64,000 bases of DNA, from positions 28,740 to 92,739 of the forward strand of contig JBFGNS010000001.1 in the NCBI GenBank assembly GCA_041574955.1, written 5' to 3'. The translations under genes and the position numbers were made by a program. The stretch comes from Thermoanaerobaculia bacterium (GTDB lineage Bacteria; Acidobacteriota; Thermoanaerobaculia; Multivoradales; JAHEKO01). The notes beneath the pieces are model-generated. The model was given only the letters and a program-made list of their open reading frames with translations. It had not been told where the DNA came from and made no database searches. This document shows positions 40,088 to 57,364 of this stretch, in pieces. Numbering within the stretch: position 1 is the stretch's first letter; each line of letters starts with the position of its first letter.

Positions 40088-43000
40088 TCAGCTCAACAGC
40101 ATCTGGAGATCTTCGGCCGTGAGCTGCTTGAGCGGCTCGCCGCCGCCGTCGAGGATGGCCTCGGCGATCTTGCGCTTCGAGCGCTGCAGCTCGAGGATCT
40201 TCTCCTCGACCGTGTCGCGCGCGATCAAGCGGTAGGCGAACACCGGCTGGGTCTGCCCGATGCGGTGCGCCCGGTCGATGGCCTGGGCCTCGACCGCCGG
40301 GTTCCACCACGGATCGATCAGGAAGACGTAGCCGGCGGCGGTGAGGTTGAGCCCCAGGCCACCGGCCTTGAGGCTGACCAGGAACAGGTTGCAGTCGGGG
40401 TCGTTCTGGAACCGGTCGACCACCTCGCCGCGCTTGCGGGTCTGGCCGTCGAGGTAGGCGTACTCGACACCCTGCTCGTCGAGATGCCGCCGTACGAACG
40501 CCAGTAGCTGGGTGAACTGGGAGAACACCAGCACTTTGTGCCCCTCGTCGAGCACCTCGGCGACCTGCTCGTAGAGCGCCTCCAGCTTGGAGCTGCCCGC
40601 CGGCACCCAGTCGTCGTCCACCAGGCCCGGGTGGCAGGCGATCTGGCGCAGTCGCAGCAGCGCCTCGAGCACCTGGATGGTCGAGCCCGCCACCCCCTTG
40701 CTCTCGACCTGGCGCAGCAGGCTGGCCTGGTAGCTGCGCTTGACCTGGTCGTAGATCTCGCGCTGGCGGTCGTTGAGGGTGCAGAGCAGGACCTGCTCGG
40801 TCTTGGGCGGCAGGTCGGGCAGCACCTGGCTTTTGGTGCGGCGCAGGATGAACGGCCGGATGCCCTCGGCGACCAGCGCCAGCTCCTGCTGGCTGGCGGT
40901 GCGGCCGCTGGTCAGCACCTCGAGGGTGGGGAGCCGGCCGAGCAGTCCGGGGTTGAGAAAGTCGAACAGCGAGCCCAGCTCACCCAGGTGGTTCTCGATC
41001 GGCGTGCCGGTGAGGGCCAGCCGGTGGCGCCCGACCAGTAACCGGCTGGCCTTGGCCGCTTGCGATTCGCGGTTCTTGATCGCCTGTGCCTCGTCCAGGA
41101 TGATGGTGTCGAACTCGACCTCGACCAGGAAGCCGACGTCGCGTCGCAGCGTGCCGTAGGTGGTGACCACCAGATCGTAGTCGCCCAGCCTGGCCTGCAG
41201 CGCCTCCCGGCCGGGGCCGCCGTACTCCACCACCTTCAGATCGGGGGTGAAGCGCTGCGCTTCGTCTAGCCAGTTGTAGACCAGGCTGCGCGGCGCCACC
41301 ACCAACCAGGGCAGCCCGGTGGTCTTCGACGCCGTGCGGTGGGTGCGCAGCAGGGCCAGCACCTGGACCGTCTTGCCGAGGCCCATGTCGTCGGCCAGCA
41401 CGCCTCCGAGGCCGAACTCGCGCAGGAAGTCGAGCCATCCGAGACCGTCGCGCTGGTAGCCGCGCAGCGTGCCGCGGAAGCTGCGCGGCTCCTTCTTGGG
41501 TTTGATGCGGTCGAACGAGCGCAGCTTGTCGCGCAGCTTCGAGAAGCCCTGGTCGACCTCGGGCTCGGGCATCTGCGCCAGCAGCGCGTCGACCAGCAGG
41601 GCCTGCGACGGAATGAACCTCAGGCCGGTGTCGGTGGTCGAGTGGGCGAGCTGCGCCAGCGAGCCGTAGGCCTCGCTCACCGAAGCCGGCAGCAGGCCGC
41701 GGGAGCCGTCGCCCAGCGAGACGAAGCGGTCGCCGCGGGCCAGCGCCGCCAGCACCTCCGAGATGTCGATCTCCTCGCCGGCGAAGTCGAGCTCACCGCT
41801 CAGCTCGAACCAGTCGATGCCGCTCTCGACGCGCAGCGCCGGCGGGCTGGGCGAGCGCAGCGAGCTGCCGTGCACTTCGACGGTCCAGCCGTCGGCGAGC
41901 AGCGGCTCGGCCACCACCGGCACCTCCTGCGGCGGCAGCTCGAGCTCGTGCCCCTTGCCGGCGGGCACCGGCCGCACGCCGGCCTCCAGCAGCCGTACCA
42001 GGGCGGCGTGCTCCCAGTCCATGTCGCGCCGCAGCACGGTGCGCCGCGGCCAGTCGACGATCGTCGAGCGCGAGTCGGCGGCGCTGACCTCCATCGAGCC
42101 GTAGACGAACGACAGCTCGGCCACCAGCGGCGCGTTGGGCAGCACCGAGGCCGCGTCCTGCTCCAGCACCAGCCTCGGGGCCGGCTCCTCCCGCTCCTCG
42201 AACAGCCCCAGCTCGGTAGGCAGCTCGAGCTGAGGCAGGTCGCCGATCTCGTGCAGCTGGGTCAGGGCCTCCTCGAGCTCTTCCTTGGGGATCAGGATCT
42301 CTTCCGAGTGGCGCAGCAGCCGGCACCATTCGATGTCCCGCGCGCGCCCGGCCATCAGGCGGCCGAGCGACGCACCGGCGACGACCAGGGCCGTGTCGTC
42401 GCCGTCCGGGGGCAGCACCAGCTGCACCGCGTCGAGCGGCACGCTGTCGTCGCCGCGCTCCAGGCTGCCGCCCAGCTTGACCGCGCCGGCCGGCGCCGCC
42501 TGCAGCCGCAGCGCCAGGCGCCAAGGCTGTCCGGAGTCCCAGGAGAGCTGGCGCCGGTTGGCCGGGTTGCGGCCGTCCCACCAGCCCAGGAGGCCGGCCT
42601 CGGCGAGCTGCGGCAGCACCGCGGCGTGCAGTCGGGCAGGCAGGCGGAACTGCTGCGCGCGACCGGCGTCGACCGGCTTCCGGCCACGCGGCCCGCGTCC
42701 CTTGCGCAGCGGCGGGGCGGCGGCGAAGGCGGTGACCAGCGCCGGCGCACGCTGCGACGTGTTGCCATCGGGAGCCTGGGCCAGCAGTGCGGCCAGCTCG
42801 TCGGTCGCCAGGGTGGCGCGCTTGAGCTTGCCGGATTTGCCGCCGCCGCGTCGCTGGAACAGGTCGATGACCACCGCGCCGGCGGCTTCGCTGGCCGCGG
42901 TGTTGATCAGCAGGCGGAGGTTGGGGGGGGCCTGCGGCCGCTGCTGTTGGCCGTCGCCTGGAGTCTCGGCTTCGACGCCCTCGAGCTCCTCGCGGAGCCG

Positions 43001-43543
43001 CCCCAGCTGGTCCTGCCAGCCGGCACGCCGTCCGCGGCTGCGGCCGCGCGGCCCCGCCGCCTTGCGCTGGCGTCGCGGTCTCGCCAGATGCACCCGCGCT
43101 CGCTGCTCGATCTGGCCGGGGTCGTCCTCGCGCTCGGTTGGCCGTTCCTTGCGCAGCGCCAGCCTGCCCCGGCCCGGCGGTTGGACCGACGGATCGAGGC
43201 TACCGATTGCCAGCAGGGTCGCCCACAGGTGCTTGCACGGGCGCCCGCCGGCAAACCGCTGGCAGGTGCACGAGGCGCGCAGCAGCCTGGACTCCGGGAC
43301 CTCGGACCAGTCGACCTCCACGGTGTAGCTCTCGTGCTCGGTGCCGGCGACGCGCGCCATCGCCCGGCCGCCGTTGACCGCCAGCTGCACCCGGCCCTCG
43401 TCGAAGTAGTCGTCCCCGCGCTGGCGGTCTCCGGGCTGGAAGTGCGAGCTGCTTCGCTTGTGCAGCGGTACGGGGCGCGGGCCGGAGCCACCGCGGGGCT
43501 TGCGTCCCGGCGGCGGACCTTTCTCCGTGGTCGTCGTGGACAT
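40088..43543 (-). CDS. SNF2-family helicase with N-terminal SWIM zinc finger
   Basis: CTCQRFAGGRPCKHLW (SWIM CxC...CxH); DEAQAIKN (DExx box), LTGTPIENHLGEL, HELICc QAIDRAHRIGQ. Confidence 0.85.
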   Translation of the reverse strand: MSTTTTEKGPPPGRKPRGGSGPRPVPLHKRSSSHFQPGDRQRGDDYFDEGRVQLAVNGGRAMARVAGTEHESYTVEVDWSEVPESRLLRASCTCQRFAGGRPCKHLWATLLAIGSLDPSVQPPGRGRLALRKERPTEREDDPGQIEQRARVHLARPRRQRKAAGPRGRSRGRRAGWQDQLGRLREELEGVEAETPGDGQQQRPQAPPNLRLLINTAASEAAGAVVIDLFQRRGGGKSGKLKRATLATDELAALLAQAPDGNTSQRAPALVTAFAAAPPLRKGRGPRGRKPVDAGRAQQFRLPARLHAAVLPQLAEAGLLGWWDGRNPANRRQLSWDSGQPWRLALRLQAAPAGAVKLGGSLERGDDSVPLDAVQLVLPPDGDDTALVVAGASLGRLMAGRARDIEWCRLLRHSEEILIPKEELEEALTQLHEIGDLPQLELPTELGLFEEREEPAPRLVLEQDAASVLPNAPLVAELSFVYGSMEVSAADSRSTIVDWPRRTVLRRDMDWEHAALVRLLEAGVRPVPAGKGHELELPPQEVPVVAEPLLADGWTVEVHGSSLRSPSPPALRVESGIDWFELSGELDFAGEEIDISEVLAALARGDRFVSLGDGSRGLLPASVSEAYGSLAQLAHSTTDTGLRFIPSQALLVDALLAQMPEPEVDQGFSKLRDKLRSFDRIKPKKEPRSFRGTLRGYQRDGLGWLDFLREFGLGGVLADDMGLGKTVQVLALLRTHRTASKTTGLPWLVVAPRSLVYNWLDEAQRFTPDLKVVEYGGPGREALQARLGDYDLVVTTYGTLRRDVGFLVEVEFDTIILDEAQAIKNRESQAAKASRLLVGRHRLALTGTPIENHLGELGSLFDFLNPGLLGRLPTLEVLTSGRTASQQELALVAEGIRPFILRRTKSQVLPDLPPKTEQVLLCTLNDRQREIYDQVKRSYQASLLRQVESKGVAGSTIQVLEALLRLRQIACHPGLVDDDWVPAGSSKLEALYEQVAEVLDEGHKVLVFSQFTQLLAFVRRHLDEQGVEYAYLDGQTRKRGEVVDRFQNDPDCNLFLVSLKAGGLGLNLTAAGYVFLIDPWWNPAVEAQAIDRAHRIGQTQPVFAYRLIARDTVEEKILELQRSKRKIAEAILDGGGEPLKQLTAEDLQMLLS

Positions 43544-43807
43544 GGAGCGAAGAGGCTCGAAAGGCGGAGCAGCTTGGCGCCGTACGGGCTGGCGCGGGCT
43601 GCGAGCGCTCGCCTGGTACTGCCCCGTCAGTCTTCCGCGCGCCGGCCGAACAGCCGCGGCGGGGCGAGCGACCGCGTTAGTGTACAGCATCCGAGGCGGT
43701 TTTTGGGCAGGTGCCCTCAAATCCGACCGAAGGATCGGCGCCCGGTGGGCATCCAACATGACAGATCGGAGGAAACCGCCAGCGGCACGGCCGGGCAGGC
43801 TGACGAG

Positions 43808-44443
43808 ATGAGAGCGACGAAGACCGAGCGGGAGCTGGTCCGGCGGATGGTGGCCGGCGACGCTTCGGCTTTCGACGAGTTCGCCGACGGCTACCTGCCG
43901 GGTCTCTACCGGTTCGCGGCCGCCCGGCTGGCCGGAGACCGGGAGCTGACCCGCGACATCGTCCAGAGCACCGCCTGCAAGGTGATCGCCAAGATCGCCT
44001 CGTTTCGCGGCGAGGCGGCGCTGATGACCTGGCTCTGCGCCTGCTGCCGCAACGAGATCGCAGCCCACTTTCGCCGTCACATGCGGAGCGCGCACGAGGT
44101 CGACCTGGAGGTCGCCGAGGAGACCGGGGCGGGTGAGTCCGTCACGCCGCCACCGGACGGGCCGGAGAGCGCCGCCATTCGCCGCCAGGCCGCCGATCTG
44201 GTCCACGTCGCGCTCGACACGCTACCGGCGCACTACAGCCAGGCGCTCGAATGGAAATACCTCGAGGAGCTGCCGGTGAGCGAGATCGCCGGCCGCCTCA
44301 ACCTCGGCCTCAAGGCCGCCGAGTCGCTTCTCACCCGCGCCCGCCAGGCGTTTCGCGACAGCTACGGCCGCCTCGCGGCCACCCCCGGCAGGGCCGCTTC
44401 GGCGCCGGCCTGGATCGGGCGGAGAATGGAGCTCGAATCATGA
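43808..44443 (+). CDS. ECF (sigma-70 family) RNA polymerase sigma factor
   Basis: Region 2/4 pattern (FDEFADGYLPGLYRFAAARL..., C-terminal HTH); ATGA-coupled to FecR gene. Confidence 0.8.
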   Translation: MRATKTERELVRRMVAGDASAFDEFADGYLPGLYRFAAARLAGDRELTRDIVQSTACKVIAKIASFRGEAALMTWLCACCRNEIAAHFRRHMRSAHEVDLEVAEETGAGESVTPPPDGPESAAIRRQAADLVHVALDTLPAHYSQALEWKYLEELPVSEIAGRLNLGLKAAESLLTRARQAFRDSYGRLAATPGRAASAPAWIGRRMELES

Positions 44444-45510
44444 GCGATCCCAGACCAGCGGCCGGCCGGCCGGTCGATCCGGCCGAGGAAGAACGTGAGC
44501 TGCGGCACCTGATCCGCCAGGCCGGACCACGCCCGGCGGTGCCGGCGTCCGATCTCGGGGAGATCAAGGCGGCGGCGCGCCGCGAGTGGCAGCGGCTGGT
44601 AGCGGCGGAGGCGGCGCGGCGCCGCTGGGCCCGGCGGCTGGCCTGGGCTGCCGGCCTGGCGGTGGCGGCGGTCGGCGCCTGGTGGTGGAGCGCCCGCACG
44701 GTGCCCCAGCCGCCGCCGGCGGTGGTGGCCCGGGTCGAGCTGGCGCGCGGCGACGTGCGGGTGGGCGGCGACGCGATCGACGGCGGCGGCGAGCCGCTGG
44801 GGTCGGGCGGAGAGCTGGTGGCGGGCAGCGAGCTGGTGACCGCGGGCGCCGCCGCTGGCAGCCCCGGCCGGCTGGCCATCCGGCTGGCCGGCGGTCCCTC
44901 GGTGCGGCTCGACCACGACTCGCACGTCCGTTTGGCTTCGCACCGGCGGCTCGAGCTGCTCGCGGGCGCGCTTTACGTCGACTCGGGCGTCTCGCCGGCG
45001 GCGGGCGGCGGCATCGAGATCGACACGGGACTCGGCGTGGTGCGCGACATCGGCACGCAGTTCGAAGTTCGGCTGAGCGACACCGGCGAGGCGCTGCGCA
45101 TCCGGGTGCGCGAAGGCCGGGTGACCCTGTCGGCCGCCGGCGAGTCGCATTCGGCCGCCGCCGGCGAGGAGCTCACCTGGCAGCGAGACGCGCCGCCGGT
45201 GCGTGGCCGGGTCGACTCGTGGAGTGCCGAGTGGGAGTGGGTGGTGGCGGCGGCGCCGCCGATCGAGATCGAAGGCCGGACGCTGGGCGAGTTTCTCGAT
45301 TGGGTCTGTCGCGAGGCCGGCTGGCGGCTGGAGTTCGTCGACCCGGCGCTGGCCGAGTCGGCGCGCGACATCCGCGTCCACGGCGCCATCGAGGAGCTGA
45401 CGCTCGAGCAGGCACTGAGCGTCGTGCTGCCCGGCAGCCGGCTGAGCTACCGGCTCGAGGACGGCGTGCTGCGGGTGGCCCGCGGCGCGGGCCGGCTTCA
45501 GAACTCGTAG
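44440..45510 (+). CDS. FecR family anti-sigma factor / signal transducer
   Basis: N-terminal cytoplasmic anti-sigma region, single TM (LAWAAGLAVAAVGAWWW), periplasmic FecR domain. Confidence 0.7.
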   Translation: MSDPRPAAGRPVDPAEEERELRHLIRQAGPRPAVPASDLGEIKAAARREWQRLVAAEAARRRWARRLAWAAGLAVAAVGAWWWSARTVPQPPPAVVARVELARGDVRVGGDAIDGGGEPLGSGGELVAGSELVTAGAAAGSPGRLAIRLAGGPSVRLDHDSHVRLASHRRLELLAGALYVDSGVSPAAGGGIEIDTGLGVVRDIGTQFEVRLSDTGEALRIRVREGRVTLSAAGESHSAAAGEELTWQRDAPPVRGRVDSWSAEWEWVVAAAPPIEIEGRTLGEFLDWVCREAGWRLEFVDPALAESARDIRVHGAIEELTLEQALSVVLPGSRLSYRLEDGVLRVARGAGRLQNS

Positions 45511-48104
45511 CTGACGCCGAGCGAGGGCAGGATACCGACCCACTGCTCCGGGTTGGGCTCGATCGCCCCCGTGTCCTGGTCGATCTGGTAGTCGAAGCCG
45601 GCCAGGTTGCCGCGGTCGTAGACGTTCTGGACGTCGAGGAAGACCGACAGGACGCCGCTGCCCAGCCGCCAGTCCCGGCTGGCGCGCAGATCGAGGCGGT
45701 GGTAGTCGGACAGCCGGCGGCTGTAGGCCGGCCCGAGCACGGGCACCAGCTCGACCTCGCCCTCGGCGTCGACCTCGCGCTCGAGCGACAGCGGCGTCGT
45801 CGGCCAGCCGGTGTGGTAGCGCCAGGCCAGGTTGAGCTTCCAGTGGCGGCTGATGCGGTAGTCCAGGTCGAGGTTGAGGGTGTGCGGCTGGTCGTAGCGG
45901 CGGGGCACGCGCCGGCCGTCGATCTGGTCCTCGGTCGAGGCCCAGGAGTAGTTGATCCACCAGCCGATCCGGTCGCCGAAGCTGCCGCGCAGGAAGAACT
46001 CGATGCCCTCGGCGACGCCCCGCTCGGGCGCCACCAGGACGCGATCGGGCTCGACTTCTGGAAAGGTGTTGACCGCCTCGTACAGGTTCTCGTAGCGCGG
46101 CAGCGGGTTGCGGACGCGCCGCTGGTACAGCTCGATGCGCAGCGCCAGGCCCGGCGAGCGGCCGAGTCGGGGCCACAGCCGCTCGTAGCCCAGCACCCGG
46201 TGCTCGGAGCGCTCGACCCGGCGGAACTCGGTTTCGCCGTCCTCCACCTGGAGCTCGTACGGACGCTGGCTCTGCGTGAACCGGCCCCACGCCAGACGCA
46301 CCACGCCGCTGGTTCCGACCGCCCAGGCGAAGTTGAGGCGCGGGCTCAGCAGGCTCTCGTCGGTCAGCGTGTAGCGGTCGTAGCGCAGCCCCACCTCGGC
46401 GGTGAGCCGCTCGCCGAAGCGGCGCCGCTCGGCGACGTAGACGGCGCCGTGGTTGTCCCGGAAGCGGCCCCGGAAGTCGATCGAGTCGAACGGGTTGGCG
46501 CGGACCCGCGCCAGCGGGTTGTCGAAGCTGCCGCTGCCGCGGTAGTCGTAGTCGGCGTCGAAGCGCCGCAGCGAGAAGCCGGCCTCCAGGCTGTCGCGCG
46601 GCGACAGCCCCAGGTTCCATTCCTGGCGCACCGCCAGGACCTCGAGCCGGCGGCGGTCGCTGATCTCGAACTGCACGTCCTCCTCGAGCTCCAGCCCGAA
46701 CCGGTCGCGCTCCACGCGGCTCCTGGAGACGGCGGTCTCGAAGTAGCGCTCGGCGTCGAGCACGGTGACCAGGGTGAGCCACAGGTAGCTGCTCTGATAG
46801 TCGGTCTCGAAATGCTTGAGCTCGCCCTCCACCGTCTCGAGCACCTCCAGCTCGTCGCCGGAGCGCAGCGCGTTGATGCGCAGCCCGACACCGCGGGCCA
46901 ACTGGTAGTCGAGCTTGCCGAAGCCGTCCCAGTAGCGCGGCCGCTCGCGGCCCAGCAGCCGGGAGGCCAGGTCGGCGGTGCCGCGGCGCAGCTGGACCAG
47001 CCAGCTGCCGCGCTGCGAGTCGAAGGCGCCGGCGCCGCCGGCCTGGGCGCTCAGCAGGCCCAGGCCGAAGCGCAGCCGCCGCGGCCCGGTGGGGGTGGCG
47101 GTGGTCATGTCCAGCACCCCGCTCATGCGGTCGCCGTGTCGCACCGGGAAGCCGCCGGTCGACAGGTCGACGTGCTCGAGGGTGGCCGGCGCGACCACGC
47201 TCAGGGCACTGTCGAAGTCCTTGAGGTGAAAGGTGTCGTAGAGCTCCTGACCGTCGAGCAGGATCTGGGTCTCGTCGCGGCGGCCGCCGCGGACATGGAA
47301 CTCGGCGGTGAGGTCGTTGGAGGTGACGCCCGGCAGCAGGCTGAGGGCGCGGAAGAAATCGTCCCCCAGATGCGGTAGCGACAGGATGTCCTCACGGCTC
47401 AGCGCCAGCGGCGCTACCGGCTGTTCGCGCAGCAGCGAGACGCGGCTGGGGGTCACTTCCAGCCACTCCTCGGTGATCGGCGCCGGGTCGAGCAGGATGT
47501 CGACGTGGGTGCCGCCGTCGGCCGTCACCGGCAGTCCCGGCAGGCGCTCGACCACGAAGCCCCGGCGCCGCACCTCGAGCGTGTAGCTGCCCTCGCTCAG
47601 TTCGGCCAGGCGGAAGCCGCCGTCCGGCGCGGTGGTGGTCCGGTTACCCGTCTCCAGCAGCCGCACGGCGACGCCGGCGATCGGCGAGCCGTCGCGCCGC
47701 GAGTGGATCGTGCCGGTGATCGCCTGCGGTCTGCCGGCCGAGGCTCCGCTGCGCGGCACGATCACGATGGTGCCGCCGGCACCCTCGACGGCTTCGAGGC
47801 CGAACGGGTTCAGCAGCTCTTCGAGCTGCCGACGTGGCGCGCCGGCAGCCGGTTCGCCCGCGATCACCATCTCGGGCCGCACCACGCTGGTGGTGAACAG
47901 GATGCGCAGGCCGCGAGCGCGCAGCTCCTGCAGGGCCTCCGCCAGCGACCTGCCGGCGTAGCTGCTCGCGGCTTCGGCCGGCCCGACCGCGGCCTGCTGC
48001 GCCGGCGTGGCGGTGGCTGCCAGCAGCACGACTGCCAGGAGCGCGCAGCAGCGAAGGCGTCGTCGAGCGGCCGGGGTCCGCCGCGGGCCAGGGAGTTTCA
48101 GCAT
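45498..48104 (-). CDS. TonB-dependent receptor/transducer with N-terminal STN signalling domain and CarboxypepD_reg domain
   Basis: STN (SLAEALQELRARGLRILF), plug, 22-strand barrel ending ...GVSYEF; convergent and 13-bp overlapping with fecR. Confidence 0.8.
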   Translation of the reverse strand: MLKLPGPRRTPAARRRLRCCALLAVVLLAATATPAQQAAVGPAEAASSYAGRSLAEALQELRARGLRILFTTSVVRPEMVIAGEPAAGAPRRQLEELLNPFGLEAVEGAGGTIVIVPRSGASAGRPQAITGTIHSRRDGSPIAGVAVRLLETGNRTTTAPDGGFRLAELSEGSYTLEVRRRGFVVERLPGLPVTADGGTHVDILLDPAPITEEWLEVTPSRVSLLREQPVAPLALSREDILSLPHLGDDFFRALSLLPGVTSNDLTAEFHVRGGRRDETQILLDGQELYDTFHLKDFDSALSVVAPATLEHVDLSTGGFPVRHGDRMSGVLDMTTATPTGPRRLRFGLGLLSAQAGGAGAFDSQRGSWLVQLRRGTADLASRLLGRERPRYWDGFGKLDYQLARGVGLRINALRSGDELEVLETVEGELKHFETDYQSSYLWLTLVTVLDAERYFETAVSRSRVERDRFGLELEEDVQFEISDRRRLEVLAVRQEWNLGLSPRDSLEAGFSLRRFDADYDYRGSGSFDNPLARVRANPFDSIDFRGRFRDNHGAVYVAERRRFGERLTAEVGLRYDRYTLTDESLLSPRLNFAWAVGTSGVVRLAWGRFTQSQRPYELQVEDGETEFRRVERSEHRVLGYERLWPRLGRSPGLALRIELYQRRVRNPLPRYENLYEAVNTFPEVEPDRVLVAPERGVAEGIEFFLRGSFGDRIGWWINYSWASTEDQIDGRRVPRRYDQPHTLNLDLDYRISRHWKLNLAWRYHTGWPTTPLSLEREVDAEGEVELVPVLGPAYSRRLSDYHRLDLRASRDWRLGSGVLSVFLDVQNVYDRGNLAGFDYQIDQDTGAIEPNPEQWVGILPSLGVSYEF

Positions 48105-48203
48105 GGCGGCTGCCGGCAGAATAGCAGGCAACCGCGCCGGCCGGCGCCGCCGCGTTCACGGCCGCGCCGGCCTCGGGCTGCAGCCGAGAGAGCTGCCGAC
48201 CGG

Positions 48204-49137: not shown

Positions 49138-50013
49138 TTGCCGTCACAGCGCTCCACCGTCCGCCGCCCGCCGCTGGCCGCGTACCTGCTGGTGTTCGGT
49201 CTGATCGTCGCCAACCTGCCGTCGTCCGCCGCCGGCGCGACCGACTGTGCGGCAATCGCGTCCGCCGACCTGCGGCGCATCTGCGAGCGCGGCGAGCTGC
49301 GGGTCGCGCGCTACGGCGGCGAGCGTCCGCCGTTCTTCTCCCGCACCGACGGCAGCTGGAACGGCTTCGACGTCGACCTGGCGCGCGACATCGCGGCCCG
49401 GCTCGGGGTGCGCTACAGCGAGGACGCCTCGGCGTCGTCCTTCGACGAGGTGGTGGAACGGGTGGTGAGCGGCGAGGCCGACATCGCGGTGTCCAAGCTC
49501 AGCGCGACTCTCGATCGCGCTTTCAAGGTGCGGTTCACGCGGCCGTACCTGACGGTGTATCAGGCGGTGCTGGTCAACCGCCTGTCGGTCCCCTCCGGAC
49601 GCGATCCGTTCGCCGCCCTGGATGCGCGGGGAGTGGTGGTCGGCGCGCTCGACGGCACCGCCTACATGGGCTACGCCGCCGCGACCTTCGGCCGCTCCGA
49701 GATCCGCGGCTTCGCCAGCTTCGAGCAGATGATGGAGCAGGTGGTGTCGGGCGGGATCGACGCCGCGCTCATGGACAGCGCCCGCGCCAACAGCTGGCGC
49801 CAGGCCAACCGGCGGCAGCTGATCCACGTGCGTACCACCGTCGACAAGAGTCGCCGCGACCCGCTGGCGATCGCCGTCGGCTGGCAGGACACCCACCTGC
49901 TGGCCTGGCTCGACCTGTACCTCGACACCATCCGCGCCGACGGCACCGCCCGTCGGCTCTACCGCAAGTGGTTCGCGGCGGCGGACTCCGCCGAAGAGGC
50001 GGGCTCGCCGTGA
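49138..50013 (+). CDS. substrate-binding protein family 3 (PBPb) domain protein
   Basis: GFDVDLARDIAARLGV classic SBP_bac_3 motif; N-terminal TM/signal. Confidence 0.65.
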   Translation: MPSQRSTVRRPPLAAYLLVFGLIVANLPSSAAGATDCAAIASADLRRICERGELRVARYGGERPPFFSRTDGSWNGFDVDLARDIAARLGVRYSEDASASSFDEVVERVVSGEADIAVSKLSATLDRAFKVRFTRPYLTVYQAVLVNRLSVPSGRDPFAALDARGVVVGALDGTAYMGYAAATFGRSEIRGFASFEQMMEQVVSGGIDAALMDSARANSWRQANRRQLIHVRTTVDKSRRDPLAIAVGWQDTHLLAWLDLYLDTIRADGTARRLYRKWFAAADSAEEAGSP

Positions 50014-51362
50014 CCGGTGGGGCGGAGCGCGGCGGCTGGGCCACGCTGCGAAGGCTGGCGCCGATTCTGCTCGCCATCGGCGCCGGCGTGGGGGTAGGCG
50101 AGCTGGCGCCCGAGGTCGGTGAGCTGGCGGCGCCGTTCGGACGCCTGTACGTGTCGCTGCTGCTGATGTGCGTGATCCCGATCCTCGGCGCCGCGGTGGT
50201 CTCGAGCCTCGGCCGGATGGTGGCCACCCACAGACTGGGACGGAACCTGGTCGGCATCCTGGTTGTGTTCTGGGGCGGCATGCTGCTGTCCGCGACGATC
50301 GGCACCGGTATCGGCTGGGTGACGCGGGTCGGGGCCGACCTCGAGACCTCGGCCGCGCTCGGCGACCTGCTGCTCGAGATGGAAGGCGGCGGCGGGCCGG
50401 GCGGCGGGGAAGCCACCGGCGAGGAGGCCGATGCCTACGTCGAGCTGTTCGCCGGCTCGCCGCCGCGGGCGCCGGCGGCCGGCGGGGCCGCGCCCGAGAT
50501 GCGTGGCCCGCGCCTGCTGACCTATCTCGACAAGCTGATTCCGGGCAACCTGGTGGCGGCTTACCTGGAGGACAACTACCTGGCCGTGCTGTTCTTCTCG
50601 GTGCTGCTTGGGGTGGCCCTGGGTCTGTCGCCGGGCGCGACGCGCGACCTGGCGCTCGGCGTGCTGGAGGCGATGTTCAACTCGCTGCTACGGATCATCA
50701 CCTGGGTGATCTGGCTGCTGCCGCTCGGCCTGTTCTGCCTGGTGGCCGGGCAGGTGGCGGCCGGTGGACTGGCTTTCGTGGTGGTCTTTCGCCGGGTCAT
50801 CCTGGTCAGCCTGGTGACCACGGTGGCCACCATGGTGCTGTTCACGGTGACCATCTGGAAGGTGCGCGGCGGCACGCTGGCCGGCACCCTGCGCGGCATG
50901 CGGGAGCCGTTGCTGATCGCCTTCGCCACCTCCAGCAGCTTCGCCTCGATCCCGGCGGCGATGGTGGCGCTCAAGGACAACTTCGGCCTGGGGCGCGAGA
51001 ACGTCAACCTCTTTCTGCCGCTCGGCATCACCATGAATCCGATCGGCAGCGCGCTGTTCTTCAGCCTGTCGTCGATCTTCGCGGTTCAGCTCCACGGCAG
51101 CGCCGGGCTCAGCCTGGCGCCGTTCGACGCCGTGATGCTGATCCTGGGATCGGTGCTGGCGGGCATCGCCGCCATGGGGCTGCCGGGGGTCAGCGCGCTG
51201 TGGATGCTCGGGCTGGTGCTGGAGCCGATCGGCGTGCCGCCCGAGGTCGGGATCGTGGCGCTGGTGGCGGTGGCGCCGATCATCGACCCGCTGTTCACGA
51301 TGGTGAACGTCTACGGCAACTGCACCGCCACCTGCATCCTGGATCGCTACGTCGGCCGCTGA
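50010..51362 (+). CDS. dicarboxylate/amino acid:cation symporter (DAACS, GltP/DctA family)
   Basis: GTGA overlap with SBP3 gene; LGITMNPIGSALFFSLSSIF and other DAACS hairpin motifs. Confidence 0.75.
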   Translation: MTGGAERGGWATLRRLAPILLAIGAGVGVGELAPEVGELAAPFGRLYVSLLLMCVIPILGAAVVSSLGRMVATHRLGRNLVGILVVFWGGMLLSATIGTGIGWVTRVGADLETSAALGDLLLEMEGGGGPGGGEATGEEADAYVELFAGSPPRAPAAGGAAPEMRGPRLLTYLDKLIPGNLVAAYLEDNYLAVLFFSVLLGVALGLSPGATRDLALGVLEAMFNSLLRIITWVIWLLPLGLFCLVAGQVAAGGLAFVVVFRRVILVSLVTTVATMVLFTVTIWKVRGGTLAGTLRGMREPLLIAFATSSSFASIPAAMVALKDNFGLGRENVNLFLPLGITMNPIGSALFFSLSSIFAVQLHGSAGLSLAPFDAVMLILGSVLAGIAAMGLPGVSALWMLGLVLEPIGVPPEVGIVALVAVAPIIDPLFTMVNVYGNCTATCILDRYVGR

Positions 51363-51775: not shown

Positions 51776-53341
51776 TCACAGCCGGCGCAGGTCGAGGCGC
51801 GAGAAGTCCGGGATCCCCAGTGGGTCGGGCTCGAAGTTGCGCACCTGGAAGGAGTGCACGTAGACCACCGAGCCAGTGACCAGGGGCAGCAGCGGCACCT
51901 CCTCCGCGATCGCTGCCAGCAGCTCGTGCTGGAGCGCCGTCGAGGGGTCCAGCCGGAGCTCCTTGAGCAGCCCATCGACCGCCTCGTTGCGCCAGCGCGA
52001 CAGGTTGGCGTGGATGGAGATCGGGCGGTCGGTGGTCGGGATGGAGTCGGAAGCCAGGCATGCCTCGAGGTAGTCGACCGGGTCGAGGGTGTCGGCGATC
52101 CAGCCGGTGAGCGCCATGTCGTAGTCGCCGCTGGCGACCCGGCGGAAGTAGTCCTCGCTGTCGCGCGCCGGCTCGATCTCGACGGCGATGCCCAGCTCGG
52201 CGAGCTGTCCGGCGATGTAGCGGGCGACGGCGCGCGGCTGCGGCAGGTAGGGACGAGGTCCGAAGATCACCATCAGGCGCAGCCGCTCGGGGCGGGGCCC
52301 GGGTGCCTGCTCGAGCAGCGACCTGGCCCGGTCCAGCCGGTAGAGGAGGCCGTCACGCCAGCTCGACATCATCGGCGGCAGCAGACCGGCAGCCGTGATC
52401 GCCAGCGGATTGGTGGGGTAGCACAGGGTCGCCACCTCGACGCGGTCGATGGCGGTCGCCAGGGCTCTGCGCACCTCGCTGCTGGCCAGCTCGGGCCGCT
52501 CGGTGTTGAAGTACAGGATCGACGTGGAGTTGCCCGGGGCGAACGCCTTGCGCACCCGGCGCAGCTCGCTGGTGTCCTCCCGGTTGAGCACGTTGGTGAA
52601 GTCGACCCGGCCCTCTTCGAGCGCCGCCAGCAGCGCGGTCGGTCGGCCCTCCTCGTCCGGTGGATAGCAGGTGAAGCGCAGCTCGCCGATCGCCGGCGGC
52701 GGCTGGTGGTGCGGGTTGCGCGTCAGGTGGAGGCGCTGGGGGGTGGAGTCGTCGGCCAGCCGGTACGGTCCGGTGCCGAGCAGCGCCGAGCCGCTCTCGA
52801 GCACCACCCCGGAATACGGCTCGGCCAGCACCAGCTCGAAGCGGGCGTTGGAACGACGCAGGTGGAAATGCAGGCGGTCGCCGCTCACTTCGGTGGAGGC
52901 CAGGTCGCGGATGTGACTGACGCGCGCCAGCGAGCGCGCCAGCAGCTCGGGCGTGAGCGGCGTGCCGTCGGAGAATCGGACGTCGGGACGCACCTGCGCC
53001 GAGTAGCGGGTGCGATCTTCGGACTCGCTCGCCAGCGGCTCGCTGAACAGCACCGGTCGGGCTGGCTCGTCTCCCTGTGGCGGCGCGAACGGTGTCTCGA
53101 AGATCTGCGATACCGCCATCAGGCTGACGAAATCCTGCGCGCGGCTGGGGTCGAGGTTCTGCACCTCGGAGATCAGGCCGATACGCAGCAGTTTAGCGTC
53201 GCCGGCGGTGGCTTCGGGATCGGGCAAGGTGGGCCTCCTCAAAGCGTCGGGCGGGGTGTCGTCCGGTCGGTTACGATACCAGTCCCTCATCGAGCGCGGG
53301 CCGCTCGGCGGCCGGTCGCTCGCGCCTTCGGTGGCCGTCAT
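51776..53341 (-). CDS. SBP_bac_5 (peptide/nickel-type) solute-binding-like protein, no obvious signal peptide
   Basis: KLLRIGLISEVQNLDPSRAQD... family-5 SBP pattern; start M1 or M18 (53290). Confidence 0.55.
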   Translation of the reverse strand: MTATEGASDRPPSGPRSMRDWYRNRPDDTPPDALRRPTLPDPEATAGDAKLLRIGLISEVQNLDPSRAQDFVSLMAVSQIFETPFAPPQGDEPARPVLFSEPLASESEDRTRYSAQVRPDVRFSDGTPLTPELLARSLARVSHIRDLASTEVSGDRLHFHLRRSNARFELVLAEPYSGVVLESGSALLGTGPYRLADDSTPQRLHLTRNPHHQPPPAIGELRFTCYPPDEEGRPTALLAALEEGRVDFTNVLNREDTSELRRVRKAFAPGNSTSILYFNTERPELASSEVRRALATAIDRVEVATLCYPTNPLAITAAGLLPPMMSSWRDGLLYRLDRARSLLEQAPGPRPERLRLMVIFGPRPYLPQPRAVARYIAGQLAELGIAVEIEPARDSEDYFRRVASGDYDMALTGWIADTLDPVDYLEACLASDSIPTTDRPISIHANLSRWRNEAVDGLLKELRLDPSTALQHELLAAIAEEVPLLPLVTGSVVYVHSFQVRNFEPDPLGIPDFSRLDLRRL

Positions 53342-56300
53342 CGCCGGGGCTCGGCGCCTGCCGCGTCTCGGGCAGCGAGAAGTGGAAGCTGGCCCCGCTG
53401 CCGGCGCCCGCCGACTCGACCCACACCCGCCCGCCGTGGGACTCGATGACGCGCCGAACGATCGCCAGGCCGACCCCCGTCCCCTCGCGGCGGGGGTCGA
53501 GGCGCTCGAACAGGTCGAAGATCTTGCGGTGGAAGCGCGGATCGATGCCGATGCCGTTGTCGCGCACCCAGACCTGCGGTTGTTCCCCGTCCGGCGTCCA
53601 GCCGACTTCGACGCGCGGCGGAACCGACTCGCGCCGGAACTTGATCGCGTTCTCGATCAGGCTCTGGAAGACCTCCACCAGCCGGGCGCCGTCGACGCGC
53701 GCCATCGGCAGATCGGGGGCGACCCGCACGGTCGCCCGTGCTTCGCGGATCGGGCCTTCGCAGCGCTGAAGCGCCTCCTCCGCCAGCGCGGTCAGCGGAT
53801 GCCAGCGCGGAGCGTGCTCGACCCGCCCGATGCGCGCCAGATCCAGCAGGTGGCCGAGCTTGGAGGCCATGCTCCGGGTGGCTCGGTCGATGCGGTCGAG
53901 GTCGTGCCTCACGCGATCGAAGTCGCCCTCCTCGAGGTCCCGCTCGAGCACGCCCAGAAAGCCGCGGATGGTGACCAGCGGACTCTTCAGGTCGTGCGAG
54001 ATGGAGTAGGTGAACCGCTCGACCTCTTCGCGGCTGGCGCTCAGCTTCTGCACCAGCTGCTCGAGCTGGGCGTTGCGGCGGCGGCTGGCCGCGAGCCGCC
54101 ACCGGAACAGCTGCGCCACCACCGCCGCGGCCGCCAGCAGACCGAGCAGGCGGATGGTGGGGCGCTGGTGCCACAGCGGCAGCACGCGCAACGGCCGGCT
54201 GGCGCCGGCCGGGTCCCACACCCCATCGTTGTTGGCCGCGATGACGTGGAAGGTATACGCCCCCGGCTCTAGGTTGGTGTAGCGCACGCTGCGCGCACCG
54301 CTCGCCTCCTGCCACTCGGTCTCGAAGCCGTCGAGCCGGTAGCGCGCGCGCACCTTGGCGGGCGCGACGAAGCTCAACACCGAGAACCGGAAGACCAGCT
54401 CGCGGGTGCCGGCGGCGATCCGCGGCCGGAGCCCCGGCTCGGACACCCTGCGGCTGTCGGCCACCAGCGCGTCGACGGCCACCAGCGGCGGCACCGAGTT
54501 GCGCAGGATGCGATCGGGCCGGATGCGGGCCACCCCGGCAAGTGTCGGGAACCACAGCCGTCCGCCGGCGTCCTTGAGGATCGCTGCCGAGGCCGTGCAC
54601 TCGCGGTGAGGCAGACCGTCGCTCTCGTCGAAGACCTCGACCGACAGGCGCCCGCCCGAGCCGTCCAGCACCGAGGCCAGCTGGCGGTGTTCGAGCCGCA
54701 GTACGCCGATCGGCGAGGTCGCCCAGATCGCGCCCTCGCCGTCGTGCAGCAGATCGAAGACGGCGTCCGTCGGCAGCCCCTGGCCGACCGACACGGCCGA
54801 CACCCGTCCGTCGCGCAGCCGGGCGATGCCGCCGTTGGTGGCGATCCAGAGGCCACCCTCGGCATCAGGGCGCGCCCTGAAGACCAGGCTCCCGGGCAGG
54901 CCGTCGGCCACCGTGTAGCTGCGGATCGAGCCGTCGGGCGCCCGCACGTCGAGACCGGCGTGGGTACCGACCAGCAGGTTGCCGGCGGCGTCCTCGCCCA
55001 GCGACAGGATGAAGTTGGAGCTCAGCCCGGCGGACTGGTCGAGCGTCTCGAATCCGCCGCCCTCCAGCCGGCGCAGCAGGCCGGCGTTGCGGGTGCCGAC
55101 CCACAGTTCGCCGGTGCGATCTTCGAAGACCAGCCGCACCTGGTTGGTCGGCAGCCCGTCAGCCGTGGTGTAGAGCCGCTCGACGCTGCCGCGCTTGGCG
55201 AGCAGTCCGGCGTGGCTGGAGATCCACAGCGTGCCGTCGCGGGCGCGCAGCGCGTGCCTCATGCGCACGCGGCCGACCGGGGTGGCGAGCGGAAACGGTT
55301 CGACGGCGTCGTCACGGATGAGCTGGAGCATGCCGTTGTCGGCGCCGATGAGGTGACGGCCTGGTGCGATCTCGGAGATGAAGTTGACCCGCTCCGGGGC
55401 CGGGCCTCCGCTCACCCGGAAGCGGCTGAACTTGGCCGAGCGCAGCTGAAACAGGCCCTCGCCGTAGCTGGCCAGCCACAGGCTGCCCTCGCGATCGACC
55501 AGCAGCGCGCTGACCGGACCGAAGGCGGCGCCGTCGGCGGTCAGCGGGCGGGTGAGGGATCCGTCGGCGGGGGTGTAGCGAAACGCTCCCTGCTGCGACG
55601 CGATCCACAGGCTGCCGCGCTCCCCCTCGTACAGCCGGAAGATCTCCAGGTGGCCGGTATCCGGCACGGATTCCAAGCGGCCGTCGGACAGTCTGCTGAG
55701 CCCTTCCTGGGTTCCGATCCAGAGCGCTTCGGCGGTCTCGAGCAGGCTGCTGGCGGCGTTACTGATCAGGCCGTCGGCCGTGGTGTAGGTGCGGCTCGCC
55801 TCGCCGTCCGCCAGTCGGGTGACGCCCTTGCCCTCGGTGGCGAACCAGAGCGCGCCGTCGGCGGCGCGCAGGATGTCGCGGACGCTCACCGCCTGCAGGG
55901 CGGCGACGTCGACCGGTTCGATCCGGCCGTCGGTGAAGCGGAAGGCGCCGGCATCGTCGGTGCCGACCCAGACGCTGCCGCCGGGCTCGGGCAGCAGGCT
56001 GCGCACGCTGTAGGCGAACTTCTCCGAGGTCGCCAGCGGATGGAAGTCGCCGTCGCGCAGCAGCAGCACGCCGCTGCTCTGGGTGCCGATCCACAGCACG
56101 CCGTCACGGTCCTCGACCAGCTCGAGGACGCCGTTGCCGCGCAGCTCGGCGCGACGCGGTCGGGCCATGGTCGCGGCGATGCGGTGGCGGTCGAAGTTGA
56201 CGAAGCTGCTGCCGTCGAAACGCACCAGCCCGCTGAGGCTGGCGATCCAGAGATAGCCGTCGCGCGACTGCAGCACATCGAGCAGCAGGTTGCTGGCCAG

Positions 56301-56485
56301 CCCCTCCTCACTCGTCCAGCGCGTCACCAGCTGCTGCGCGGGTGCCGGCGGCTCGAAGGTCGCCGAGCGGTGGGCATCGGCCGCCGCGACCGGTGGCGCG
56401 AGTGCCGCCAGCGCCGCCACCACGGCGGCTGGCGACCGGCGCCGACGCGGCGGGTGTGCCTCGAGCGAGGCTCTGGCGGCAGAGG
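53271..56485 (-). CDS. sensor histidine kinase with periplasmic two-component-regulator propeller repeats and Y_Y_Y domain
   Basis: Repeated ...DG.LWIGT... propeller blades, TM, HisKA FTYSISHDLKSPL, HATPase VRDNGIGID; start inferred (TTG about 56485) after FetB stop. Confidence 0.7.
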
Positions 56486-56557
56486 TACCCAAAGCCGATC
56501 TTCCGTAACCCTGGCCGCAATTATAGGGGCGGTTCCGCTGGAGCTCCCGGCTTCGGC

Positions 56558-57364
56558 TCAACGCCGGCCGACGGAGCGCAGCCGGGCGTGCAGGAACTGG
56601 TGGGCCGGAGTGAACAGCCGCCGGTAGCCGAGCAGCACCACGCCCAGGGTGCCCAGGGCGGTGGCCGAGGCGATCAGGAACATGATCACCACCTGGTAGC
56701 GCACCGCCTGCACCGGCTCGACTCCCGCCAGCAGCTGTCCGGTCATCATGCCCGGCAAGCTGACGATGCCGGCGATCATCATCGAGTTGACGATCGGGAT
56801 CATGCCGGTGCGCACCGCAGAGCGCACCGGCCCGCGGGCCGCCTCCCAGCGCGTTGCGCCGAGTGCCAGCAGCCCCTCGACCTCCGCGCGGCGCCCGGTG
56901 AGCTCTTCTCCCAGCCGGTCCAGCCCGAGCGAGATGCCGTTGAGCGCGTTGCCCAGGATCATGCCCAGGAAGGGGATCGCGTACTGCGGACGGAACCACG
57001 GCCGGACCTCGACCACCGCCGCCAGCGCCACCGCCGCGATCAGCCACGAGGCGGCCCAGATCGATACCAGACTGTCGAGCCAGATGCCCGGGTAGCGCCG
57101 CGGCGTGCGGCGAACGGCCGCGATGCCGGCGGCGATCGTCATCAGAGCCATCAGGTCGACCACCGGCGGCCAGCGGCTGATGGCGAAGACCCACTCCAGC
57201 ACCAGTCCGACCAGCAGCAGCTGGACGGTCATGCGCACCGCCGCGAGCAGCAGCCGACGGTGGAGCTCCAGCCTGAGCGTCAGCGAGATCGCGGCGTTGA
57301 TCAGGATGAGCAGGGCCGCGATGCCGAGCTGGCCGTACGACAGCTCCAGGTAGCCTGCCGTCAC
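56558..57364 (-). CDS. fetB: FetB/YbbM-like (UPF0014) ABC exporter permease
   Basis: VTAGYLELSYGQLGIAALLIL N-terminus typical of FetB; GTGA overlap with upstream ATPase. Confidence 0.65.
   Translation of the reverse strand: MTAGYLELSYGQLGIAALLILINAAISLTLRLELHRRLLLAAVRMTVQLLLVGLVLEWVFAISRWPPVVDLMALMTIAAGIAAVRRTPRRYPGIWLDSLVSIWAASWLIAAVALAAVVEVRPWFRPQYAIPFLGMILGNALNGISLGLDRLGEELTGRRAEVEGLLALGATRWEAARGPVRSAVRTGMIPIVNSMMIAGIVSLPGMMTGQLLAGVEPVQAVRYQVVIMFLIASATALGTLGVVLLGYRRLFTPAHQFLHARLRSVGRR

Follow-up and report, generated by a model that had tools for sequence, protein, structure and literature searches.

A family-3 binding-protein gene coupled to a DAACS transporter gene in Thermoanaerobaculia: a probable binding-protein-dependent secondary amino-acid importer

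What does a family-3 substrate-binding protein (SBP3) do when its gene runs directly into the gene of a secondary transporter? The question is raised by a stretch of 64,000 nucleotides from a Thermoanaerobaculia bacterium (GenBank assembly GCA_041574955.1, contig JBFGNS010000001.1, positions 28,740 to 92,739 of the forward strand), which we call the window and whose own numbering we use throughout. It contains a gene with a TTG start for a substrate-binding protein (SBP) of 291 aa (49138..50013, + strand) and, overlapping it, a gene with a GTG start for a 450-aa transporter of the DAACS/SLC1 family (TC 2.A.23), SDF in Pfam (50010..51362, + strand). From comparison of these proteins and their loci with homologues across bacteria, we consider it probable that the pair is a two-component, SBP-dependent secondary amino-acid importer that works without ATP.

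The junction of the two genes reads ...GCC GTG A..., so that the GTG of the transporter (50010-50012) and the TGA of the SBP gene (50011-50013) overlap by 4 nt. This GTGA start/stop overlap (50010..50013, + strand) is a signature of translational coupling, and the DNA also shows a putative Shine-Dalgarno-like element, GAAGAGG (49993..49999, + strand), which lies 10 nt ahead of the transporter's GTG and still inside the gene for the SBP. In our alignment of transporter homologues (A1) the N-termini fit the start at 50010 and not the in-frame GTG upstream at 49968, and in two public contigs with identical proteins the independent NCBI gene calls also give 291 aa, 450 aa and a 4-nt overlap. A first-pass annotation made from the letters alone had described a family-3 SBP gene, containing the peptide GFDVDLARDIAARLGV (SBP residues 76-91), that ends on the GTGA starting a DAACS transporter gene; the direct reading of the DNA and the Pfam matches given below bear this out. 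Because the flanking genes, both on the minus strand, are divergent upstream (an FKBP isomerase) and convergent downstream (an RRM protein), the SBP and transporter genes are a two-gene operon. A scan around it found no sigma-70-type promoter or intrinsic terminator, a result that is uninformative in a GC-rich genome of the Acidobacteriota type. No Rfam RNA leader was found at the gathering threshold in the window or in eight loci, nor in the 5' region at E<=1.

Is the arrangement a local accident? We collected 48 loci from species-representative genomes through alignment A1 (forward set). They come from Acidobacteriota/Thermoanaerobaculia, Gemmatimonadota, Desulfobacterota, Spirochaetota, Omnitrophota, Verrucomicrobiota and Planctomycetota, and also from Alphaproteobacteria (Devosia, Rhizobium, Metarhizobium, Holosporales), Betaproteobacteria (Undibacterium, Burkholderiaceae, Sulfuricellaceae) and Gammaproteobacteria (Methylococcaceae, Thiotrichaceae). 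In a tblastn search with the window SBP, each of the 47 loci with upstream DNA, from about ten phyla, proved to have an SBP3 gene immediately before the transporter gene and in the same orientation; the 48th locus begins inside the transporter gene and is uninformative on this point. The 46 junctions with both ends placed comprise 16 NTGA overlaps of 4 nt (13 of the 14 Acidobacteriota-type loci plus three others), 13 ATGnnTGA overlaps of 8 nt (Devosia, Rhizobium and other loci) and, for the remainder, mostly gaps of 10-45 nt.

The converse search gave the same picture. We used an SBP alignment (A2) to gather 80 metagenome loci at 27-88% identity (reverse set), and probed them with profile searches. 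A transporter of the same subfamily lies directly downstream of the SBP in 59 loci, upstream in three and between two SBPs in one. It therefore adjoins the SBP in 63 of 65 informative loci, the remaining 15 contigs being too short to judge. The adjacency of the two genes is far beyond chance. The first-pass annotation had named lack of conservation as one of two results that would undo its idea; these counts, together with the common overlaps and the fused forms described below, dispose of that doubt. Further, the pairwise distances among the SBPs follow those among the transporters (r=0.91), a correlation reached in 0 of 2000 Mantel permutations.

The partnership does not extend to other genes. 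None of the genes flanking the pair or near it in the window (TonB receptor, FecR, FKBP, RRM, SBP_bac_5) recurs beside it elsewhere, and no signalling gene, kinase or other, is conserved next to it. Within 10 kb on either side of the window SBP there is no operon of a BPD_transp_1 permease and an ATP-binding cassette (ABC) ATPase; the window's one ABC ATPase gene, of the FetAB type, is 6.5 kb off and on the other strand. ABC ATPase-like open reading frames (ORFs; Walker A plus LSGGQ) occur in 6 of the 48 forward and 5 of the 80 reverse loci and are mostly UvrA-sized. As controls, two more distant SBPs, P0316 (29% identical) and P0322 (26%), sit in classical SBP-permease-ATPase operons, and the 40%-identical Cohnella SBP P0303, a lipoprotein, has a 4-nt overlap with the 3' end of an SDF gene, in reversed gene order. 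No SBP gene neighbours the distant, DctA-like DAACS gene P0062 or any of the four characterised E. coli DAACS genes (sstT, gltP, dctA, tcyP).

We then looked at what each protein could do. The 291-aa protein is a predicted periplasmic amino-acid binder: it matches Pfam SBP_bac_3 (PF00497; E=4e-24, 85.3 bits against a cut-off of 26.4), and its best solved relatives are AncCDT-1 (5t0w, E=6e-29), an ancestral amino-acid binder, and other amino-acid-binding SBPs. Residues 1-34 (49138..49239, + strand) read in the translation as a predicted signal peptide, with an RR n-region, the hydrophobic stretch LAAYLLVFGLIVANL and a cleavage site between A-G-A and T; of the two possibilities left by the first-pass annotation, a signal peptide or a transmembrane (TM) anchor, this favours the former. 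Elsewhere, every partner SBP with a readable 5' end carries a signal peptide, and the SBP homologues of Cohnella, a Firmicute, carry LASC lipoboxes. The AlphaFold2 (AF2) model consists of two lobes, as in the type II periplasmic-binding-protein fold of family-3 (class F-IV) SBPs (predicted local distance difference test, pLDDT, 89.7), with a low-confidence N-terminal helix lying apart from the fold. Foldseek matches this model to AncCDT-1, Ws0279 (3k4u) and the Trp-bound SBP 9e2b with target-normalised TM-scores of 0.77-0.86. The last of these, a Desulfonauticus sp. SBP with L-Trp released in 2024-11, is the second-best structural match, and we found no paper on it; we considered it as a solved member of the clade and dropped the idea, since it scores only 96 bits, at rank 17, against the clade profile.

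The ligand site is kept as well. The sequence S119-K-L-S122-A-T124-L-D-R127 (49492..49518, + strand) corresponds to the Ser/Thr...Arg motif that binds the alpha-carboxylate and aligns with SGMTITPER of AncCDT-1; alignments A2 and A3 show little or no variation at S119, S122, T124 and R127. The roles of these residues are as in LAO/HisJ (R77). Asp213 (49774..49776, + strand), the equivalent of the alpha-amino-binding LAO D161, is invariant in A2 and nearly so in A3, and aligns with the D of DAMVTDS in AncCDT-1. The window SBP has thus retained all five positions expected of an alpha-amino-acid binder, judging from the alignments. Two cysteines, Cys37 and Cys49, flank the first helix (C-x4-P-x-DLR-x-IC; 49246..49284, + strand), are both present in all partner SBPs of the Acidobacteriota clade, and probably form a disulfide. 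In MltF-type proteins, of about 480 aa, an SLT catalytic domain comes after an N-domain that resembles SBP3, and the first-pass annotation had worried that the SBP might be a fragment of one. The SBP3 here is complete and stands alone: it stops after 291 aa and has no SLT match in Pfam, and the MltF model aligns with it only over model positions 18-270 of 483, where it scores 59 bits (cut-off, 354).

The transporter matches PF00375 over model positions 5-386 of 387 (E=9e-62, 209.7 bits against a cut-off of 27.9). The A1 profile finds the ancestral aspartate transporter, GltTk and GltPh in the PDB at E=1e-52 to 4e-66, and the AF2 model (pLDDT 73) resembles an outward-facing protomer of GltTk, ASCT2 or GltPh, with Foldseek TM-scores of about 0.7. 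The protein nevertheless falls below all the equivalog cut-offs of NCBIfam (DctA, 109.5 against 513; GltP, 93.6 against 638; SstT, 82.3 against 308). A subfamily hidden Markov model (HMM) that we built locally gives it 538 bits, against 210 for E. coli GltP, 197 for DctA, 144 for TcyP and 108 for SstT. A search of 1.84 billion representatives with another profile returned 13,894 DAACS matches, the best 150 of which each exceed 300 bits. The motif N[MLIV]DG is found in none of 205 subfamily sequences and in about half of the more distant matches. Because the HMM scores separate them from the E. coli DAACS proteins and this motif is absent from all 205 sequences, the SBP-linked transporters form, by sequence, a DAACS subfamily of their own, with no fewer than 150 clusters at 50% identity.

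Alignment to solved transporters shows which parts of the substrate site have been kept. In hairpin 1 (HP1), Ser308-Ser309-Ser310 (50931..50939, + strand) is conserved in the subfamily and in the E. coli DAACS proteins, and the tip of hairpin 2 (HP2), the predicted extracellular gate, reads GLPGVSAL (51177..51200, + strand) and aligns with the GVPGAG-type HP2 of solved homologues. In TM7, N343-P-I-G346 (51036..51047, + strand) replaces the canonical NMDG. TM8 reads D426-P-L-F429-T430-M-V-N433-V-Y-G-N437 (51285..51320, + strand; tabulated over 39 loci). Relative to GltPh, D394, T398 and N401 are retained (D426, T430, N433), R397 has become Phe429 and D405 has become Asn437; in other clades of the subfamily the R397 position is Leu, Arg or Thr. 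NPIGS and Phe429 thus stand where NMDG(T) in TM7 and Arg in TM8 would be canonical, which excludes the GltP and DctA subfamilies but not the DAACS family. We had at one point taken the loss of NMDG and of D405 for a clade-specific loss of Na+ sites. We withdrew this, as the E. coli controls deviate too: D405 is N in the H+-coupled GltP and DctA, SstT has NMAG and TcyP has GQNG, so that these positions do not diagnose the coupling ion.

The roles of the substrate-site residues are known for GltPh and GltTk, where R397 binds the side-chain carboxylate. Because this Arg is Phe in the window transporter, the substrate in the Acidobacteriota clade is probably, as a tentative guess from sequence, a neutral or hydrophobic alpha-amino acid lacking an acidic side chain. 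Gene context is uninformative on the substrate: Rhizobium has DUF1194, SBP, transporter and methyltransferase in a row, and Devosia has cobalamin genes downstream. In Rhizobium sp. YJ-22 (L030:3357-7099) these four genes, for a secreted vWA-like DUF1194 protein, the SBP, the transporter and a class I SAM methyltransferase, are joined by start/stop overlaps. A further feature of the window transporter is an insertion of 45-50 residues rich in Gly, Pro and Ala (residues ~126-173; 50385..50528, + strand) in the TM3-TM4 loop, which is extracellular in the GltPh topology. It is confined in A1 to the Thermoanaerobaculia/Acidobacteriota clade, is predicted to be disordered (pLDDT <50 in the AF2 model), and lies between conserved flanks, LLLExEST and Y[VA]ELFxG. 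One may speculate that it helps the SBP to dock.

In some members the two proteins have become one. Among the 150 best subfamily representatives, eight are fusions of the form signal peptide-SBP3-TM-SDF. We read four of them: a signal peptide, the SBP, a single hydrophobic helix and the transporter follow one another, a topology that, as predicted from sequence, holds the SBP outside and meets the cytoplasmic N-terminus of the carrier correctly. The same four score with both subfamily profiles (transporter, 364-427 bits; SBP, 212-268 bits). A distant DAACS lineage (P0070, P0073, P0075, P0076, P0077; locus L053:686-2851) has the inverse layout, a C-terminal TM helix and then SBP_bac_3. With the subfamily HMM it scores no more than 59-80 bits. 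Its TM7 reads FNFP(N/H/S)(A/T)G, and it appears to be an independent recruitment of SBP3 by a DAACS carrier. Other loci multiply the SBP. Tandem SBP3 genes precede the transporter in L029, L034, L036, L039 and L040 (Undibacterium, Burkholderiaceae and spirochaetes), where the upstream copy is nearer to the window SBP and the copy adjacent to the transporter lacks the carboxylate-binding Arg (IKRDL/FRTL instead of LS.TL.R). In three Spirochaetaceae loci (L027:4836-6947, L031, L047) the order is SBP, transporter with a degenerate C-terminal SBP-like domain, and second transporter. That domain lacks the Ser...Arg ligand motif and, because no TM helix intervenes, is predicted to be cytoplasmic; it may be regulatory.

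How might such a pair work? The exported SBP, its signal peptide cleaved, would capture an alpha-amino acid with high affinity in the cleft between its lobes. The DAACS elevator transporter, which presumably forms trimers as its relatives do, would receive the loaded SBP at its periplasmic face and take over the ligand at the HP2-gated site. From there the transport domain would move the ligand into the cell, with an ion gradient and not ATP as the source of energy. What we infer in this scheme is that the two proteins dock, that transport depends on the SBP, which way it runs and how it is energised. The first-pass annotation had proposed either a binding-protein-assisted secondary transporter or a sensor/transporter pair, and comparison, the only kind of evidence used here, supports that proposal. 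More broadly, we lean towards the view that an SLC1 elevator fold has been adapted to receive its substrate from a periplasmic amino-acid-binding protein. The subfamily concerned has no fewer than 150 clusters (50% identity) from ten or more phyla, fused forms included.

Synteny, coupling and fusion prove a functional link and not its nature, and the SBP might instead be regulatory or sensory, in which case it would modulate or gate the DAACS protein, or the pair would report ligand to a signalling protein, without delivery of substrate. DctA, a co-sensor for DcuS/DctB, provides the model. Several findings weigh on this side or against an importer. Three of the 150 best representatives (P0133, P0168, P0216; 1154-1206 aa) are fusions of SDF, dCache_1 and an adenylate/guanylate cyclase, which may act as a 'transceptor', a transporter-like module wired to cyclic-nucleotide signalling, and four more (P0113, P0120, P0131, P0093) have a C-terminal SBP-like domain with no TM helix between, hence on the predicted cytoplasmic side. 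Two loci of the SBP clade (L065, L125) have no transporter, and a 36%-identical SBP, P0304, lies beside a giant Ser/Thr-kinase/histidine-kinase gene and likewise has no transporter; it is a close relative of the DAACS-linked SBPs co-opted for signalling. The tandem loci, in which the copy next to the transporter has lost its Arg, point the same way. To judge from the cyclase fusions and the C-terminal SBP-like domains, the subfamily is used in regulatory contexts too, and the sensory explanation stays alive for some of its members. For the window pair we hold it to be unlikely. Transport is favoured because no kinase or other signalling gene is conserved beside the pair and because the substrate-site residues of HP1, HP2 and TM8 are kept across the subfamily; besides, neither window protein has an output domain, and the N-terminal fusions tether a complete, motif-bearing SBP outside a complete transporter.

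It is also improbable, in our estimate, that the two proteins are co-expressed and work independently, the carrier alone and the SBP with an ABC permease and ATPase, a chemoreceptor or a kinase encoded elsewhere and sharing the same substrate. SBP3 proteins do normally serve ABC importers, public annotation calls the SBPs of this group 'ABC transporter substrate-binding protein', and orphan SBPs shared between several systems have precedent. Yet mere co-regulation seldom outlasts such phylogenetic distance or ends in fusion, and here adjacency with start/stop overlaps is kept in 47 of 47 and 63 of 65 informative loci, ABC genes are consistently absent beside the pair in the loci examined, covalent fusions have acquired an extra TM helix and the two proteins co-diversify. 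A periplasmic enzyme with an SBP fold, such as a cyclohexadienyl or arogenate dehydratase, which evolved from SBP3 binders, could instead make a product that the carrier imports; the closest solved relatives do include the AncCDT series and the Pseudomonas cyclohexadienyl dehydratase, and a carrier with Phe in place of R397 would be suited to an aromatic or neutral amino acid. This we regard as very improbable, since the best match, AncCDT-1, is the non-catalytic amino-acid-binding ancestor, the true dehydratases match only at 1e-11 to 1e-7 and the alpha-amino-acid motif (R127, D213) is retained. An artefact deserves mention because the very GC-rich window has a great many long ORFs that overlap and are spurious, among which chance juxtaposition might occur; strong Pfam matches, hundreds of protein homologues, confident or fold-consistent models and agreeing independent gene calls refute it, and we give it practically no credence. 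A secondary importer fed by its SBP remains the explanation that we prefer.

Some of the loci named above have additional features. One of the three cyclase fusions also carries TPR repeats. At the metagenome locus of P0304 (L135:1-6066) the SBP3 gene overlaps by 4 nt the gene for the Ser/Thr-kinase-GAF-histidine-kinase protein, of 1652 aa, and a Peripla_BP_6 protein follows. Around the pair in the window, a gene for an oligopeptide-type SBP_bac_5 protein (51776-53341, minus strand), with no ABC genes nearby, lies downstream of and co-oriented with that of a large Reg_prop/Y_Y_Y histidine kinase (53271-57194, minus strand), and may encode a second 'orphan' SBP in a sensory context. We considered this kinase and the SBP_bac_5 protein as partners of the pair and discarded both, neither being kept next to it elsewhere. 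On the other side (~43700-48131), genes for an ECF sigma factor, a FecR-like anti-sigma protein (with a start/stop overlap in public gene calls) and, divergently oriented, a CarboxypepD_reg-TonB-dependent receptor make up a cell-surface signalling cluster of the classic type. Upstream of this cluster, a long ORF (40088-44206, minus strand) contains a SWIM-SNF2 helicase.

If the pair is what we propose, it would be an independent case of SBP-dependent transport on the best-studied elevator fold (GltPh/EAAT/ASCT), and the first SBP-dependent member of that fold. Docking of an SBP on an HP2-gated elevator, and handover to it, would become directly testable by structure and biophysics, and experiments are within reach, since some hosts can be cultured (Devosia, Rhizobium, Undibacterium, Cohnella). 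The ABC label that these SBPs bear in public records would prove to be a systematic error, and Acidobacteriota, rhizobia, Devosia, spirochaetes, sulfate reducers and others would possess a high-affinity, ATP-independent means of amino-acid uptake. Open-access full texts and bioRxiv contained no description of an SBP3-DAACS system that we could find, an earlier mention elsewhere being possible, and profile searches found no subfamily member of either protein in the PDB. SBP3 with DAACS is apparently an undescribed family pairing for SBP-dependent secondary transport.

How does the pair compare with systems that are known? With canonical DAACS carriers (GltPh/GltTk; E. coli GltP, DctA, SstT and TcyP; human EAAT/ASCT) the window transporter shares the Pfam family, the fold, the Ser-Ser-Ser of HP1, the HP2 tip and the D...T..N of TM8. 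Those carriers, which are trimers with HP1 and HP2 hairpins, function without an SBP, and the window transporter differs from them in NPIG instead of NMDG/NLDG, in Phe instead of R397 and, within its clade, in the long TM3-TM4 insertion. The polar amino acid ABC importers (PAAT; HisJQMP, ArtJ, GlnH) have the same SBP fold and alpha-amino-acid motif, whereas the window SBP has no BPD_transp_1 permease or ATPase gene beside it; ABC-linked relatives begin at about 26-29% identity. In TRAP (DctPQM, SiaPQM; TC 2.A.56) and TTT (TctABC) systems, as proposed here, a periplasmic SBP whose gene lies in the same operon feeds an elevator-type component driven by an ion gradient. TRAP SBPs select carboxylates via an Arg. 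Neither component of these systems is homologous to the window pair, and a further small membrane component, as subunit or domain (Q/TctB), is essential to them, whereas the window pair has no third conserved gene. Pfam gives only SBP_bac_3 and SDF for the pair, with no SBP of the DctP, TAXI or Bug-TctC type and no DctQM, TctAB or GltS component.

Until TAXI-GltS was described, soluble SBPs were known to serve just two kinds of secondary transporter, TRAP and TTT; the paper on TAXI-GltS also asks why secondary carriers do not use SBPs more, and suggests an elevator mechanism as the enabling feature (PMC12344293). Our proposal, if true, would back the idea that elevator mechanisms make SBP coupling possible. 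The TAXI-GltS system of Bordetella pertussis (BP0403/BP0402; Jaques et al. 2025) is described as an SBP-dependent secondary symporter, and glutamate was measured as the ligand of BP0403 (PMC12344293). As in the window, the SBP gene is translationally coupled to that of a stand-alone, predicted elevator-type amino-acid symporter, ABC or TRAP membrane genes are absent nearby, natural SBP-transporter fusions occur in other bacteria, and the case is built on genome context and not on transport assays (PMC12344293). The components themselves are unrelated, a TRAP-type TAXI SBP with a GltS-family carrier there and SBP_bac_3 with DAACS/SLC1 here, and BP0403 has an extra dimerising N-terminal domain whereas the window SBP is a plain two-lobe protein. 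By analogy, the pair resembles TRAP, TTT and especially TAXI-GltS in predicted function, not in ancestry.

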